Below, piece by piece: positions 1 through 64,000 of a stretch of DNA of 64,000 nucleotides (positions within the stretch are counted from its first letter, which is position 1; each line of letters starts with the position of its first letter). Under the pieces are notes generated by a model. That model saw only the letters and a program-made list of their open reading frames with translations, searched no databases and had not been told where the DNA came from. The stretch is taken from positions 605 to 64,604 of the forward strand of contig DASYRX010000159.1 in assembly GCA_036003845.1 (NCBI GenBank), read 5' to 3'. This stretch comes from Gemmatimonadaceae bacterium. GTDB taxonomy: Bacteria; Gemmatimonadota; Gemmatimonadetes; Gemmatimonadales; Gemmatimonadaceae. The position numbers were made by a program, and so were the translations under genes.

Positions 1-1014
1 GGAGCGGCGACCGTTGTCGAACAGCGCGTCCACCGCTTCCTGCAGCATGCGCTTCTCGTTGCGCAGGATCACTTCAGGCGCGCGGTGCAGAATGAGCTTC
101 TGCAACCGGTTGTTCCGGTTGATGACGCGACGATACAGATCGTTCAGGTCCGACGTGGCGAAGCGTCCGCCGTCAAGCGGGACGAGCGGCCGCAGATCCG
201 GGGGAATCACCGGAACGACGTCCATGATCATCCACTCGGGGCGGTTGCGCGTCCCGTCGGAGCCTGAGTTGCGGAAGGCGTCGACGATCTTGAGACGCTT
301 GAGCATCTGCTTCTTGCGATGCTGCGACGTCTCCACGGCGACCTGCGCGCGCAGATCGGCCGCGAGCTTGTCGACGTCGATGCGCCTGAGGAGCTCGCGC
401 GCCGCCGGCGCGCCGATGTCGGCGAAGAAGCCCGTGTCGCCTTCCTCGCGCGCCTTCGTCTTGAGGTTGAGAAACTCTTCCTCGTCGATCAGCTGGTTAG
501 GCCTAACGTCTTGCTGGCCCGGCTCGATGACGACGTAGTTGGAGTAGTAGATGACCTTCTCGAGATCACGCAGCGTGAGGTCGAGCAGATTCCCCATCGG
601 GCTGGGGAGTGTCTTGAAGAACCAAATGTGCGCCACCGGCACGCTGAGCTCGATGTGGCCCATGCGTTCGCGTCGCACCTTGGAGAGCGTCACTTCCACG
701 CCGCAGCGATCGCAAATCACGCCGCGATAGCGGATGCGCTTGTACTTCCCGCAATGGCATTCCCAGTCCTTGACGGGACCGAAGATGCGCTCGCAGAAGA
801 GGCCGTCCTTTTCCGGTTTGAACGATCGATAGTTGATCGTTTCCGGCTTGGTGACCTCACCCCATGACCACCATGTACGCATTCCCTGCATCTCGAGCCG
901 TTCGCGCTCCTTCGAGTCCTTGGGACCACGGATCTCGTCGGGGGACGCGATGCGGATGGAGATGTAGTCGAACGCGGATGCGCGCGCTTCACGCGCGCTG
1001 CGGAAATCGATCAT
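1..1014 (-). CDS. rpoC: DNA-directed RNA polymerase subunit beta' (N-terminal ~338 codons; gene continues past the left edge)
   Basis: Absent from the ORF track because it has no stop in the window. My reverse-strand translation from the ATG at 1014 reads [38 protein letters not shown]... and [31 protein letters not shown] (beta' zinc-finger block). It starts 4 nt after the rpoB stop. Confidence 0.93.
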
Positions 1015-1017
1015 CGC

Positions 1018-4000
1018 TTACTCCTCGCCATCGTGGCGGAAGGGGGCACCGTCGCCGTTTTCTTCGTCGTTCGATGCCATCTTCACGTAAATGCCTAACG
1101 CTTGCAGCTCCTTCACCAGCACGTTGAACGACTCCGGCGTGCCCGGCTCGGGGAGGTTCTGGCCTTTGACGATCGCTTCGTACACGCGCGAGCGGCCGTT
1201 CACGTCGTCTGACTTGACTGTCAGCATCTCCTGCAGCGTGTGCGCGGCGCCGTACGCCTCGAGTGCCCAGACTTCCATCTCGCCGAAGCGCTGTCCGCCG
1301 AACTGCGCCTTACCGGCGAGCGGCTGCTGCGTGACAAGGGAATACGGCCCAATGGACCGGGCGTGGATCTTGTCGTCGACCAGGTGAGAGAGCTTCAGCA
1401 TGTAGATCTCGCCCACCGTGACCGGGAACGTGAACGTCTCGCCGCTGCGACCATCGCGCAGCGTCGTCTTACCGGTTGTCGTCAGGCCGCCTAGACGCAG
1501 CAGCTCGACGGCGGCCGCGTCCACGTCGGCCTCGGACTTCTTGCCTAACATGCCGGCGAGCGCGGGCAGCTCGAGATCTTCGAGGATGTCGCCCAGCTCG
1601 CGGCCCTTGTGCTTCTCCAGTTGACGCAACGCCGTCTTATACTCGGCGCGCTTTTGCGGCCGCAGCGATTCGTCCTCCGCTGCCGCAGCATGGAACTCGA
1701 TGCGGTGCTCCAGCTCGCGCTCTTCGCGCTGAGCCAGCGTCTTCGCCGCAGCCGCGAGGAAGTCGCGCACTCTGTGGAAGAGATCGCGCGTCTCCTGCGA
1801 CACGTGGCGGCTGCCAAGGTCGTTGAGCGACGCTTCAGCGAGCAGCACGTTCGGCTCCTCGCTTTCCTTGTCAGGCTGGATGTCGTCGAGAATCCGGCGC
1901 ACGTCCGCGTCGGTGACTTCGAGCGGCATGTCCTTGAGCTCCAGCGCCTCACGCACCCACGTTAGGTTCGCCAGCTTGAGCAACAAACCGATCTCGCGCT
2001 CGTTGGCTCCCTGGAACGTCGGCGTCTTGGCGTAGAAGCCCAGAATCTTCGCGGCCCAACCAAGGTGGGTCTCGAGGATCTGGCCGACGTTCATTCGGCT
2101 GGGGACGCCTAACGGGTTCAAGACGATGTCGACCGGGCGACCGTTCGGCAGGAATGGCATGTCTTCCTGCGGCACGATACGCGCGACGATTCCCTTGTTC
2201 CCGTGACGACCAGCCATCTTGTCGCCGACCGAGATCTTGCGCTTCTCGGCGAGATACACTTTCACGAGCTGAATCACGCCCGGCGGTAACTCGTCAGGCT
2301 GGAGAATGCGGTCGATGCGCTCTTCCGCCTTCTCCTCCAGCTTCGCCTTCTCTTCGTTGGCCGCATCGATCAACTCGCGAACAAGCTCGTTCGCTTTCTT
2401 GTTCTCGACGCGGAACGTCTTGAGGTCGATCTGCGCGAAACGAAGGTCAGTGAGCACCTCGGCTGTGAGCTTAGTCCCTGCAGGAATCGCTTCCTCCACG
2501 GTTCCAGCCTTGAGCGCGAGGGCCACCGTCTGTCCGTCCAGCGCGTGGCGCAGTTCGTCGTCGCGCACCTCGTTGACGCGCACCTTCTGCTCGCCTTCGA
2601 GACGGCGCACTTCGCCGATGCGTTCGCCGCGGTCCTTCTCGACGACCTGATCTTCGATACGCGAGAAGATTTTGACGTCGATCACGACGCCTTCCATGCC
2701 GGGCGGCACTTTGAGCGACGAGTCTTTGACGTCCTTCGCCTTCTCTCCGAAAATCGCGGTCAGCAGCTTCTCTTCTGGCGAGAGCTCGGTTTCGCCCTTC
2801 GGTGTGATCTTGCCGACGAGGATGTCGCCCGGCTTCACGTGCGCACCGATGCGCACGATGCCGCGCTCGTCGAGATCGACAAGCGACTCCTCGGCGACGT
2901 TAGGAATTTCACGCGTGATTTCTTCCTGACCGCGCTTCGTGTCGCGGACGTGGAGCTCGAGCTCTTGGATGTGGATCGACGAGTAGATGTCGTCCTGCAC
3001 GAGGCGCTCGGAGAGCACGATGGCGTCTTCGAAGTTGTGGCCGTACCAGGGCATGAACGCCACGGTGACGTTGGCGCCTAACGCGAGATGTCCGCGTTCT
3101 GTCGCCGAGCCGTCGGCCAAAACGTCGCCCTGCTTGACCTTTTGTCCGTGACGCACGATCGGCCGCTGGTTGATGGCCGTGTCCTGATTCGTACGCCAGA
3201 ACTTCTTGAGACGATAGCGATCGCGCTGCGTGAGCCGCGCGAGCGGACGATCATCGTCCTTGCGTCCACGCTCCGGCCCCGCATCGACGATGATTTCGTC
3301 GGCGGTGACGTGCGTAACGACGCCCGTGCGACGAGCGATGACGACCGCGCCCGAGTCGCGCGCGACCTTCTCCTCGAGACCCGTGCCCACGAGCGGCGAC
3401 TGCGGATTCACGAGCGGCACCGCCTGACGCTGCATGTTGGAACCCATGAGCGCGCGGTTGGCATCGTCGTGCTCGAGGAACGGAATGAGCGCGGCAGCGA
3501 TCGAGACAAGCTGCTCTGGCGCTACATCCATATAGTCTATGCGGTCGGGGGGAACGAGTGGGACGTCGCCGCGCTGGCGGCAGAGCACCAACTCATCCAC
3601 GAACGAACCGTCCGGATTCAGCTTCGCGTTGGCCTGCGCGATGATCGCATCTTCTTCGCGATTCGCGTCGAGCCAGGCCACTTCGTCAGTGACCTTGCCG
3701 TTCTTCACTACGAAGTACGGCGTTTCAACGAAGCCGAGGTCGTTCACGCGCGCGTAGCATGCGAGCGACGTAATGAGGCCGATGTTCGGCCCTTCCGGCG
3801 TCTCGATGGGACACATGCGCCCGTACTGCGAATAGTGCACGTCGCGCACTTCGAATCCGGCGCGTTCCCTCGTTAGGCCTCCTGGGCCCAACGCCGAGAG
3901 ACGCCGCTTGTGCGTGAGCTCGGCCAGCGGATTCGTTTGATCCATGAACTGGCTGAGCTGCGACGATCCAAAGAATGCCTGAATCACCGCCGAGACTGTT

Positions 4001-62257: not shown

Positions 62258-62258
62258 C

Positions 62259-62339
62259 CGAGGTCAAAGGTCAAAGGTCAGAGGTCAAAGCGATCCACTC
62301 GTTATGGCTTTGACCTTTGACTTTTTGCCATTGACCTAT
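62259..62339. repeat. Heptad array (NNAGGTC x4) plus inverted GACCTTT units, forming a long imperfect hairpin between convergent gcvH and gcvP
   Basis: cgaggtc aaaggtc aaaggtc agaggtc aaagc ... gctttgacctttgactttt ... gacctat. The last unit overlaps the gcvP stop. Confidence 0.85.
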
Positions 62340-64000
62340 TGGTACTCCTCAATGGGCGGACACGCGCACACGAGATTCCTGTCCCCGTACGCGTTATCCA
62401 CTCGCGCTACTGCCGGCCAGAACTTCCGCGCGCGAATCCACGGTGCAGGGAAAGCCGCGCGCTCGCGGCCGTATGAATGTTCCCACGTGGCCGTCACCAC
62501 GGCTTCCGCTGTGTGCGGCGCGTGCTTGAGCGGGTTGTCCGAGCGATCGAGAATCCCCTTCTCCACTTCCTCGATTTCGGCGCGAATCGATATCAGCGCA
62601 TCGCAGAAACGATCCAGTTCTGCCTTCGATTCGCTTTCCGTCGGCTCGATCATGAGCGTCCCAGCGACCGGGAAGGAGACCGTCGGTGCGTGGTAGCCAT
62701 AGTCGATGAGGCGTTTGGCGATGTCTTCTACCTCGATGCCGGAAGAGCCTTTCACGCTGCGCGGATCGACGATGCACTCGTGCGCGATGAGGCCATTCCT
62801 TCCTTTATACAGCACTGGAAAATGCGACTCCAGGCGCTTCGCGACATAGTTCGCGTTGAGGATGGCGACCTTGGTTGCGTCAGTGAGTCCTTCGCCGCCC
62901 ATCATTTTGATGTAGATCCACGAGATCGGCAGGATCGACGCGGAGCCCCAAGGCGCCGAAGAGACTGCGCCTAACGTGGTGCGCCCAGGCTGCGGAATGA
63001 TCGGATGGCCCGGCAGAAACGGCGCGAGATGCGCCGCGACGCCGATCGGTCCCATTCCCGGTCCGCCGCCACCGTGCGGAATGCAGAACGTCTTATGCAG
63101 GTTGAGATGGCACACGTCGGCGCCGATGTCGCCCGGGCGGGCGAGGCCGACCATCGCGTTCATGTTCGCGCCATCCATGTAAACCTGGCCGCCGTGCTCG
63201 TGCACGATTTCGCACACGGTGCGGATCCCTTCCTCGAAGACGCCGTGCGTCGACGGGTACGTGACCATGAGAGCGGCCAACCGCTCGCCGTGCTCCGTCG
63301 CTTTTGCGCGCAGATCGTCGAGATCGATGTCACCGGTCGCTGTCGTTTTCACCACGACGATGCGCATGTTCGCCATCGCCGCGCTCGCGGGGTTCGTGCC
63401 GTGCGCGCTCTGCGGGATGAGGCAGACGTCGCGGTGCGTGTCGCCGCGCGCGTCGTGATACTTGCGGATGGCCAGCAGCCCGGCGTACTCGCCCTGGGAA
63501 CCCGCGTTAGGCTGCAACGAGACCGCGGCGAAGCCGGTGATCTCTTGCAGGTCCAGCTCCAGCGATTTGAAGAGATCGAGGTAGCCTCGCGCCTGTTCCA
63601 CGGGCGCGAAGGGATGCATGCGCCCAAACGCTGGCCAGGTCACCGGGATCATCTCGGCGGTCGCGTTGAGCTTCATCGTGCACGAGCCTAACGAAATCAT
63701 CGAGTGCACCAGGGAGAGATCGCGTGATTCCAGCGTACGGATGTAGCGCAGCATCTCGTGCTCGGAGTGATAGCGATTGAACACGGGATGCGTCAGGAAC
63801 GCGCTCGTGCGTGCAAAGCGCTCGTCGTAGCGCGCATCAACGTCGCCGCCTAGCGCCACGACGGCGGGCACTTGGCGTCCGTTCGCCAGCACGGCGAGGA
63901 GATCGCTCAGGTCCATATCGCCGACGGTTTCGTCCAGTGCCACCGCGATGCTGCCGGCGTCCAGCTTGCGCACATTGACGCGACGTTCCGTCGCGGCACT
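62336..64000 (-). CDS. gcvP: Glycine dehydrogenase (decarboxylating), single-chain P protein, C-terminal ~555 codons (continues past the right edge)
   Basis: ORF track: [64 protein letters not shown] (PLP-Lys). Confidence 0.95.

Follow-up and report, generated by a model that had tools for sequence, protein, structure and literature searches.

A stretch of 64,000 nucleotides from an uncultured soil bacterium of the Gemmatimonadaceae (contig DASYRX010000159.1 of assembly GCA_036003845.1; here called the window) is filled, in genes and spacers and on both strands, with one octamer, CGTTAGGC, or its reverse complement, GCCTAACG. In the clade to which the window belongs, this word is enriched 50- to 80-fold, and a force acts on the DNA word itself: copies stand in either orientation at even intervals, approach saturation, and are conserved more than neutrality would predict, and only certain lineages carry them. 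By analogy with known systems, we tentatively favor the idea that the word is a genome-wide self-recognition signal that has spread by molecular drive coupled to recombination, the most likely kind being an uptake signal like the DNA uptake sequences (DUS) of the Neisseriaceae and the uptake signal sequences (USS) of the Pasteurellaceae. Only three hyperabundant genomic words are well described, namely, DUS, USS, and the highly iterated palindrome HIP1; the origin of such words is debated, and the receptor of USS and the role of HIP1 are unsettled. The word described here adds a fourth case from an unrelated and poorly studied soil phylum, with an unusually clean signal (about 80-fold enrichment, with about one-third of the synonymous opportunities filled).

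Abundance of the word relative to chance

The hexamer core of the word occurs 134 times in the window (62 GTTAGG and 72 CCTAAC on the forward strand), and 70 of these copies are full octamers (30 CGTTAGGC and 40 GCCTAACG), making this octamer the top-ranked 8-mer by count. Among the 64 remaining hexamers, 63 match the octamer at seven of eight positions; C stands at position -1 in 104 hexamers, at position +6 in 99, and at both in 70. An initial annotation, made by eye from the letters alone, had given 134 hexamers (62 and 72), about 70 octamers, and 7-of-8 matches for most of the rest, and exact counting returned the same picture. It had also counted about eight copies of four one-mismatch variants, for which the actual total is about 17.

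How far does this abundance exceed chance? Base composition (63.4% G+C) predicts 25 hexamers and 2.5 octamers; Markov models of order 1 or 2 predict about 8 and 1.4, and a model of order 3 predicts 38 and 7. Dinucleotide shuffles yielded 1.24 +/- 0.93 octamers and never more than 4, against the 70 observed. When 51 coding sequences (CDS) were shuffled synonymously, preserving each protein and the codon usage of each gene, 8.8 +/- 2.8 hexamers (maximum, 18) and 2.0 octamers were expected, against 107 and 55 observed, so that these codon-preserving shuffles, which the initial annotation had proposed as a check, miss the observed count by more than 30 standard deviations. This null is conservative because the codon usage that it keeps is already inflated by the word. 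The maximal-order Markov expectation was discarded as uninformative because nearly all of the sub-words that enter it derive from the word itself. The most realistic of the backgrounds is supplied by word-free relatives, in which the same region holds 1.6 hexamers per 64 kb, and it is from this figure that the enrichment of about 80-fold follows. The earlier estimate of at least an order of magnitude is thus borne out, with 70 octamers where one or two are expected and 134 hexamers where about nine are expected.

The octamer is written through codon choice on both strands

Within the genes of the window, the word uses only the four combinations of frame and orientation that avoid an internal TAG or TAA, and no copy stands in a stop-creating frame, which answers the question of coding-frame distribution that the initial annotation had raised. 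The four combinations are as follows:

xxG-TTA-GGx, Leu-Gly, 55 copies
xxC-CTA-ACx, Leu-Thr, 27 copies
CCT-AAC, Pro-Asn, 18 copies
GTT-AGG, Val-Arg, 15 copies

The CDS contain 116 hexamers (1.99 per kb), and 18 lie outside CDS (3.15 per kb); the ratio, about two-thirds, is what exclusion of just the two stop-containing frames would give. Even stop codons take part, and 6 of 55 (TAG or TAA) lie inside a copy of the word.

The unit is the full octamer. The flanking C/G positions shift usage two- to threefold or more: Leu-Gly pairs are converted to the word in 56% of cases where the previous codon can supply C-G and in 21% otherwise, for Leu-Thr pairs the rate is 47% behind NGC codons and 0 of 24 behind NCC codons, and TTA-GG occurs in 0 of 34 cases without a preceding G. 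The information profile gives the consensus C-K-C-GTTAGG-C-R, with about 14 bits, and shows no flank signal beyond -3 to +7 within +/-40 bp, an interval that also holds no second half-site and no AT tracts. Nor is the word a palindrome, CGTTAGGC being different from its reverse complement, GCCTAACG.

Where the protein permits the octamer synonymously, it is written at 55 of 158 positions (35%), whereas permuted control words reach a median of 2%. Sense opportunities are used at a rate of 36.6% and antisense opportunities at 31.6%. The strand symmetry claimed in the initial annotation therefore stands (62:72, with no block structure), and no strand skew following replication is seen in the window. 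Its companion claim, that the word is built from codons otherwise very rare at this base composition, holds in part: TTA codons lie mostly within the word (52 of 72), but CTA (23 of 80) and AGG (15 of 56) lie mostly outside it.

Spacing along the window

Across genes and spacers, the word recurs about every 500 to 900 bases. The intervals had been described as roughly exponential; in fact, spacing is significantly more even than random, with a coefficient of variation (CV) of 0.64 that none of 5,000 random placements matched from below and a variance-to-mean ratio of 0.45 in 1-kb bins. Other dense loci have spacing CVs of 0.47 to 0.85. Only four pairs of copies lie less than 60 bp apart. Counts per gene are likewise underdispersed (chi-square, 23.8; 50 degrees of freedom), and density is uniform over the 51 genes of the window and, in relatives, for 10 kb past the window edge. 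DUS are reported to be biased toward genome-maintenance genes. A bias of that kind was considered here and rejected, and no gene class is preferred, since the per-gene counts track gene length (observed versus length-expected counts: uvrA, 6 versus 5.6; gyrB, 4 versus 3.8; ligA, 3 versus 4.1; sbcC, 3 versus 4.8).

Distribution among relatives

Relatives were gathered by means of RpoB (HEV8363631.1 in NCBI for the window) and UvrA. The loci fall into the following groups, given with RpoB identity to the window, hexamer density, and orientation:

Window clade (L083 to L086, L090 to L093, and L118; independent NCBI, ENA, and JGI assemblies): 91 to 99%; 1.9 to 3.0 per kb; both orientations
L122 (GCA_044224185.1; genes on both strands): 83%; 2.14 per kb; 27:22
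L087 and L088 (inside the dense clade in a neighbor-joining tree): 93%; 0.77 to 0.80 per kb; both orientations
L107, L108, L110, and L111: more distant; 0.36 to 0.86 per kb; both orientations
Sister clade (L089, L124, L094, and L123): about 83 to 84%; 0.4 to 0.7 per kb; almost one strand
All other Gemmatimonadota loci (including loci on a 4.2-Mb contig and a 3.0-Mb contig): lower; background density

The high density of the window clade is thus seen in nine independent assemblies (orientation in L085, 28:25), and two further JGI loci (L001 and L002) represent the same strain as the window, with DNA 99.6 to 99.7% identical and all sites in common. The octamer accounts for 37 of the 49 hexamers of L122. 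None of 70 loci from outside the Gemmatimonadota exceeds 0.5 per kb. Word-rich sequences include GCA_052388395.1, GCA_052386875.1, GCA_044224185.1, ERZ27251176 k141_700466, and Ga0187893_10000352; the word-free ones include ERZ25039495 contig_3146 (4.22 Mb) and ERZ28493192 ctg4075634 (3.0 Mb); and the polar lineages are represented by contigs JAXLXX010000048.1, JABAQJ010000004.1, and Ga0310361_1512348. We considered whether the two dense lineages differ in dialect and rejected the idea, the consensus being essentially the same, with only T at -2 commoner in L122. Word-free relatives yielded no replacement hyperabundant or dialect word; the candidates proved to be heptamer tandem arrays and were rejected. 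The sparsity of L087 and L088, whose G+C content is higher (65%), suggests either that the force was lost secondarily in this lineage or that gains occurred in parallel in other parts of the clade.

Two further observations concern these relatives. RpoB of the window (1018-5658; 1,546 amino acids) has a lineage-specific insertion at residues ~225 to 480, peptides of which matched only Gemmatimonadaceae relatives in a metagenome collection; it is a useful clade marker. In addition, L091 is about 96% identical to the window over rpoB and 73 to 86% identical over a MacB/FtsX-type permease gene (~9900-11400), a segment that may have been replaced.

History of individual sites

The initial annotation held that the force acts on the DNA word while the protein stays unchanged. 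This view is upheld: codon-preserving shuffles fail, and relatives use common codons at the same places. Word-free relatives spell the residues of the 12 rpoB sites with CTC/CTG-GGC, CCG-AAC, CTS-ACS, and GTG-CGS; at matching sites, the window has TTA-GGC, CCT-AAC, and CTA-ACG. Creating the word requires one to three synonymous changes at each site, of several mutation types, all toward A/T. Individual sites compare with those of relatives as follows:

1093..1100, - strand: rpoB octamer in Gln-Ala-Leu-Gly-Ile; alignment column 4622; common to the window clade, L087, L083, L089, L094, L123, and L124
2107..2114, - strand: rpoB octamer in the conserved motif NPLGVPSRMN (CCG-TTA-GGC); relatives have CCG-CTG/CTC-GGC
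3076..3083, - strand: rpoB octamer in Leu-Ala-Leu-Gly (GCG-TTA-GGC); column 2636; present in every word-bearing lineage, including the distant L107, and CTC-GGC in word-free relatives
3871..3878, + strand: octamer antisense to rpoB, GGC-CTA-ACG (Gly-Leu-Thr) in the conserved motif GGLTRERAG; column 1826; word also in L107
18436..20143, - strand: six octamers in uvrA, four of them at the same codons as octamers of L122 at 73% nucleotide identity

An ortholog alignment, as the initial annotation had suggested, shows word sites retained above controls, which were hexamers in the same frame over conserved amino acids, with L087 falling below them:

L090: 18 of 18 window sites retained; expected, 14.5; p 0.02
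L085: 16 of 19 retained; expected, 8.6; p 5e-4
L083: 10 of 16 retained; expected, 6.1; p 0.04
L087: 3 of 16 retained; expected, 7.2; below controls

Close strains differ from one another by single-step one-off variants (GTCAGG, GTTGGG, GTTACG, and CCGAAC). Compared with word-free relatives, several one-off variants are 3- to 14-fold more frequent, and depletion is seen for none. At rpoB column 4226, where the flanking G has been lost, TTA has already changed to CTA or TTG; the rare TTA of a broken copy is replaced quickly.

Does the coincidence of sites between lineages imply common descent? In the comparison of the window with L083, four-fold sites are saturated, at 48% identity, but word sites coincide in 10 of 18 cases; the overlap is four of six uvrA sites with L122, and three of the five rpoB sites of L107 coincide with those of the window. 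We do not take positional sharing as proof of descent or of convergence because octamer-compatible opportunities are few and about one-third to one-half of them are filled, so that such overlap fits convergence as well as descent.

Strand-polar relatives at low density

Four low-density lineages behave differently. In their co-oriented rpoBC and ribosomal-protein region, copies on the coding strand and on the other strand number 11:0 in L089, 10:0 in L124, 8:0 in L094, and 11:4 in L123. All of their coding copies are in-frame TTA-GGC except two Pro-Asn copies, both in L123, and their intergenic copies stand 10:1 on the same strand as the genes. Usage per opportunity is 7 to 8% in sense and 0 to 2.5% in antisense, and several of the sites persist across lineages whose synonymous (four-fold) sites are saturated. 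The polarity in any single lineage reaches p ~0.1 or weaker and the lineages share sites by descent, so that the joint evidence is moderate, not overwhelming; moreover, because all genes in these loci face the same way, polarity relative to replication is inseparable from polarity relative to transcription. UvrA homologues of the polar lineages did not appear in the 120 hits listed.

The initial annotation likened the word to DUS, USS, and HIP1 in density and symmetry and set it apart from polar words such as Chi and the FtsK orienting polar sequences (KOPS). For the window, this comparison holds. It does not extend to every carrier, since these four lineages are strongly strand polar, and the contrast with Chi and KOPS is therefore limited to the window clade.

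A self-recognition word for DNA exchange?

Once roles at the level of the gene and simple mutational bias are set aside (see below), the explanation left is a protein recognizing about 8 bp of duplex DNA regardless of orientation, combined with either site-by-site selection or a transmission advantage. We infer that the reader is uptake machinery and that the word spread by recombination-coupled drive rather than by selection site by site. The uptake-signal reading is favored because the word is asymmetric, without strand bias, evenly spaced, present inside genes with a noncoding excess, surrounded by a halo of one-off variants, restricted to a clade, and as dense as DUS. Even spacing, lack of orientation bias, noncoding excess, and copies inside open reading frames (ORFs) are published properties of uptake sequences (PMC1939737, in which USS is explained by a molecular-drive model). 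The DUS of Kingella oralis reaches about 2.5 copies per kb (PMC3630211). DUS, USS, and, according to recent preprints, HIP1 have all been linked to transformation; HIP1, otherwise the only word of similar density, is tied to a methylation-dependent form of it.

In this model, a sequence-specific part of a DNA import or recombination route would read the word as duplex DNA in either orientation, and word-bearing fragments would be preferentially taken up or integrated. Point mutations that create or improve copies would then be over-transmitted through homologous recombination, and the word would climb into every tolerated position, that is, into spacers, into the four stop-free combinations within genes, and even into stop codons. 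One copy per fragment might suffice, which would give even spacing of about 0.5 kb and no clustering.

The likeness to DUS, which are 10- to 12-mers read by the minor pilin ComP, covers a compact nonpalindromic word with a strict core and weaker flanks; a density of about 1 to 2.5 copies per kb without strand bias; placement in genes and in spacers, with a noncoding excess; a halo of one-off variants; and occurrence within a clade combined with absence from other members of the family. The present word differs from DUS in sequence, in phylum, in specifying 8 rather than 10 to 12 bases, in having no terminator-like inverted pairs, in recurring as the same word and not as dialects in separated lineages, and in having strand-polar carriers. 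USS (a 9-bp core plus AT-rich flanks) is likewise hyperabundant, orientation free, and evenly spaced, with most copies inside ORFs where the protein tolerates them. The present word, in contrast, has neither AT-rich flanks nor a second half-site within +/-40 bp, stands at about twice the density of USS, and would be linked to uptake by analogy.

Several points weigh against the uptake-signal reading. Pooled, the four polar lineages give 40:4, which symmetric uptake drive does not predict. The spread among close relatives is patchy, with only 0.77 to 0.80 copies per kb in L087 and L088 within the dense clade, and many sister lineages, including two near-complete genomes, are without the word. 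Genes for competence proteins, pilins, DNA methyltransferases, and Vsr are all absent from the 64-kb window, and our search of the literature returned no paper dealing with competence in Gemmatimonadota. In length, the word falls short of DUS and USS, and it lacks the AT-rich flanks as well as terminator-like inverted pairs, which are not a general feature of the word in the window. Neither close strains, compared with one another, nor the two dense lineages show visible recombination mosaics. Finally, the same static pattern would arise if selection maintained an intracellular binding site at each position. As to precedent, we found no paper on this word or on any uptake-type sequence in Gemmatimonadota, and the Elhai papers make no mention of the word.

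Alternative explanations

The last of these objections leads to an alternative that we consider unlikely, namely, that the word is of the HIP1 kind: the target of one or more DNA methyltransferases or of a nucleoid protein, kept site by site for an intracellular role such as chromosome organization or self-marking for recombination or defense, with gain and loss of the cognate gene producing the patchy distribution. The parallels are many. HIP1 (GCGATCGC) is an octamer, reaches up to about one copy per gene, is imposed on genes through codon choice, and is enriched 15- to 300-fold; its function was long unknown and is now tentatively tied to transformation. The present word has a HIP1-like density and even or quasi-regular spacing. 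It co-occurs with intergenic heptamer tandem repeats, and short tandemly repeated repetitive (STRR) heptamer sequences accompany HIP1 in cyanobacteria. CCTAAC also has what we take to be the general look of asymmetric 6-bp N6-methyladenine (m6A) motifs. The sites of HIP1 too are conserved beyond neutral expectation (PMC5861425), and HIP1 is nearly absent from some lineages of its phylum (PMC4390886). On the other hand, being a palindrome is the defining feature of HIP1, which contains GATC and CGATCG methylation sites with known orphan methyltransferases, whereas the present word is asymmetric. No DNA methyltransferase gene was found in the window or the fetched loci, L085 having only a non-DNA FkbM-type gene, and the polar lineages go unexplained here too. 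Since the HIP1-like reading predicts the same static pattern as the uptake signal, and since recent preprints tie HIP1 to transformation, the two partly overlap.

Could the word instead be Chi-like? That is, it might be read on one strand by a helicase-nuclease of the RecBCD/AddAB type, which stops degrading at the word and loads RecA; it would have been ancestrally polar and moderately dense and would have reached its both-strand density in the window clade and L122 either through "Chi drive" (incoming linear DNA integrating best when a copy at each end faces inward) or because two-ended breaks favor protection both ways. This explanation we judge unlikely, although it has the attraction that one reader covers polar and symmetric carriers alike. 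Like Chi, the word is an asymmetric, lineage-specific octamer (Chi and KOPS being words of 5 to 8 bases that differ between lineages), and in L089, L124, L094, and L123, it lies almost only on the coding strand, presumably the leading strand, at a Chi-typical density, with the preference for sense opportunities and the persistent sites described above. The difficulty lies in the dense carriers, which have zero polarity (62:72 in the window, 28:25 in L085, and 27:22 in L122). Chi sites described so far are not known to be enriched 50- to 80-fold, to have even spacing, or to run against codon usage, and KOPS differ from the present word in the same respects. Most relatives are without the word and yielded no replacement for it, and the co-orientation of all genes in the polar loci leaves the two kinds of polarity inseparable there. 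The window itself encodes SbcCD and RecF and no RecBCD or AddAB genes. We do not claim membership in the DUS/USS, HIP1, or Chi classes because the word has no terminator pairs, no AT-rich flanks, no palindrome, and, in this clade, no polarity.

The initial annotation spoke of selection or biased repair. A force on the word stands, and repair is the weaker half of that proposal. A neutral origin in sequence-specific mutation or repair (for instance, very-short-patch-like correction that favors the word), with no function and no transmission advantage, is improbable because several substitution types are involved, no precursor is depleted, and the even spacing is not expected of a local repair bias. 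The changes needed are C>T and C/G>A (CTS>TTA), G>T (CCG>CCT), S>A (CTS>CTA), and C>A plus C>G (CGC>AGG), and all run counter to the GC-rich trend. The process acts strongly and in a similar way across lineages, as such a bias might, but known repair biases shift word frequencies modestly (Dcm/Vsr and CCWGG), enriching words less than about 2-fold and not 80-fold.

A signal acting at the level of the gene, whether as a peptide motif, as a codon-pair or translational pause, or as the RNA motif GUUAGG in transcripts, is very improbable; it draws on the polar lineages, where coding copies are in-frame sense TTA-GGC apart from the two Pro-Asn copies of L123 and intergenic copies lie mostly on the same strand. 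In the window clade, roles in protein, codon usage, or RNA are ruled out because the word spells four unrelated dipeptides, is used equally in antisense, and is densest outside genes, where it also occurs in tRNA spacers and, at gene ends, in stop codons; the antisense and intergenic copies effectively refute such a signal. An artifact of assembly, binning, or sequencing, in favor of which we saw nothing, is scarcely credible and can be excluded because independent NCBI, ENA, and JGI assemblies from different samples (L001, L002, L083 to L086, L090 to L093, and L118) agree in density and largely in sites, with reading frames intact and no copy in a stop-creating frame.

What the word could mean for the Gemmatimonadaceae

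A bolder idea, possible but not one on which we would wager, is that the Gemmatimonadaceae harbor a previously undescribed self-recognition system for DNA exchange whose 8-bp signal exists in two states, one sparse, strand polar, and Chi-like and the other symmetric and genome saturating. If this is true, is this an uptake-type word caught evolving from a recombination-type signal, or the reverse? The reading protein would have been gained, lost, or retuned over short evolutionary distances, and the phylum would have its first described word of the uptake- or recombination-signal kind.

Close relatives form a natural comparative series of zero, sparse-polar, intermediate, and saturated states, and because the series is graded, both the identity of the reading protein and the question of drive versus selection are directly testable: phylogenetic profiling for the reading protein is feasible, and site-frequency spectra could test drive against selection. 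The word also gives a sharp marker for use in binning and in the detection of horizontal transfer within this clade, and, should cultured members carry it, a candidate handle for the transformation of Gemmatimonadaceae.

Positions of the word and other features of the window

The start positions of all hexamers follow (+, GTTAGG; -, CCTAAC on the + strand; o, full octamer). They reproduce the coordinates of the initial annotation for rpoB (12 copies), uvrA (6), gyrB (4, at 30842, 31337, 31451, and 32054), tdk (59870), and rpoC (496), and for the noncoding copies in tRNA spacers (9502 and 9606) and leaders (6167 and 7907).

496 to 9606: 496+, 502-o, 1094-o, 1544-, 1961+, 2108-o, 2899+, 3077-o, 3872+o, 4360+, 4807-, 4928-, 5170+, 5650+, 6167+, 6242+, 6358-, 6568+o, 7053+, 7326-o, 7907+o, 7957-o, 8844-, 9502-o, 9606-
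10525 to 19862: 10525-o, 11314-o, 12004-o, 12235-, 12445+o, 12677+o, 13274+o, 13548-o, 14752+o, 15780-, 15954+o, 17188-, 17524+o, 18437-o, 18929-o, 19385-o, 19792-o, 19862-o
20137 to 29853: 20137-o, 21091-o, 21973+o, 22538-, 22647-, 23079+o, 23258-o, 23674+, 24394+o, 25166+o, 25346-o, 25599-, 25797-, 26019-, 26271-o, 26648+, 26801-o, 26842+, 27371-o, 28195+o, 28279+, 28725+, 29209+, 29574+, 29853-o
30210 to 39847: 30210+, 30842+o, 31337-o, 31451+, 32054+, 32308+, 32597-, 32932+, 33344+o, 33706+, 34015+o, 34378-o, 34893-o, 35046-, 35310-o, 36125+o, 37261-, 38925-o, 39249+o, 39847-
40949 to 49707: 40949-, 41149-o, 41456-, 42367-, 42726+, 43371-, 43521+o, 44192-o, 44484-, 45053-o, 45785-o, 46438+, 46982+, 47227+o, 47650-, 48147+, 48456-, 49018-, 49485+, 49707-o
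50127 to 63687: 50127+o, 50627+, 51707-, 52769+o, 53346-, 53896-o, 54906+o, 55167-o, 55932-, 56315+, 56339+o, 56915+o, 57062+, 57310+o, 58394+o, 59048-o, 59387+o, 59870+, 60233-, 60667-o, 60952-, 61140-, 61981+, 62970-o, 63506+o, 63687-o

Individual copies with particular placements are listed here:

496..507: two adjoining copies in opposite orientations in rpoC, GTTAGGCCTAAC
7906..7963: inverted octamer pair 50 bp apart in the rplK leader, with no mutual pairing in the predicted RNA fold
9606..9611, - strand: copy adjoining the 5' end of tRNA-Tyr, with the same placement in L087 (6058) and L123 (5555)
57309..57316, + strand: octamer ending two convergent genes, its TAG being the stop of the + strand gene 55362-57314 and the complementary TAA the stop of the - strand gene 57311-57589
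6242, 22538, 34378, and 41149: further stop codons within the word
37261..38925: longest word-free stretch, 1,664 bp, spanning a small insertion-like gene flanked by heptamer repeats

In L089 and L124, a copy stands just ahead of a sequence that, by eye, resembles another tRNA gene; Rfam matches in the window itself are limited to four tRNAs.

Intergenic tandem heptamer arrays lie at 30313-30342, 37983-38062, 38534-38564, and 62261-62337. A run of (GAGGTCA) x11.4 and its reverse complement, (CTCTGAC) x4.4, form inverted arrays flanking a 470-bp segment, and shorter arrays of the GAGGTCA unit stand upstream of gyrB and beside gcvH/gcvP; the arrays of this unit recall the cyanobacterial STRR heptamers. 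Between the inverted arrays, within the longest word-free gap, is an ORF of 131 amino acids (38057-38452, - strand) whose sequence by eye recalls the "four-helix-bundle / 23S rRNA intervening-sequence" protein family and which has the look of a small insertion. The lack of the word over this insertion-like gene agrees with the direction that uptake models predict, as a single case that is not significant alone. The listed start of the ligA ORF, 38485, is inside the repeat array and probably too far upstream.

A second heptamer, CTGTCAG/CTGACAG, forms short direct and inverted intergenic arrays (17955-17991, 27768, 49544-49590, and 61803), with 17 copies against 1.6 expected from relatives. The word-free L114 has inverted arrays of another unit at 8754-8880, (TGGTCGC)n facing (GCGACCA)n, and heptamer arrays seem to be a family trait with lineage-specific units.

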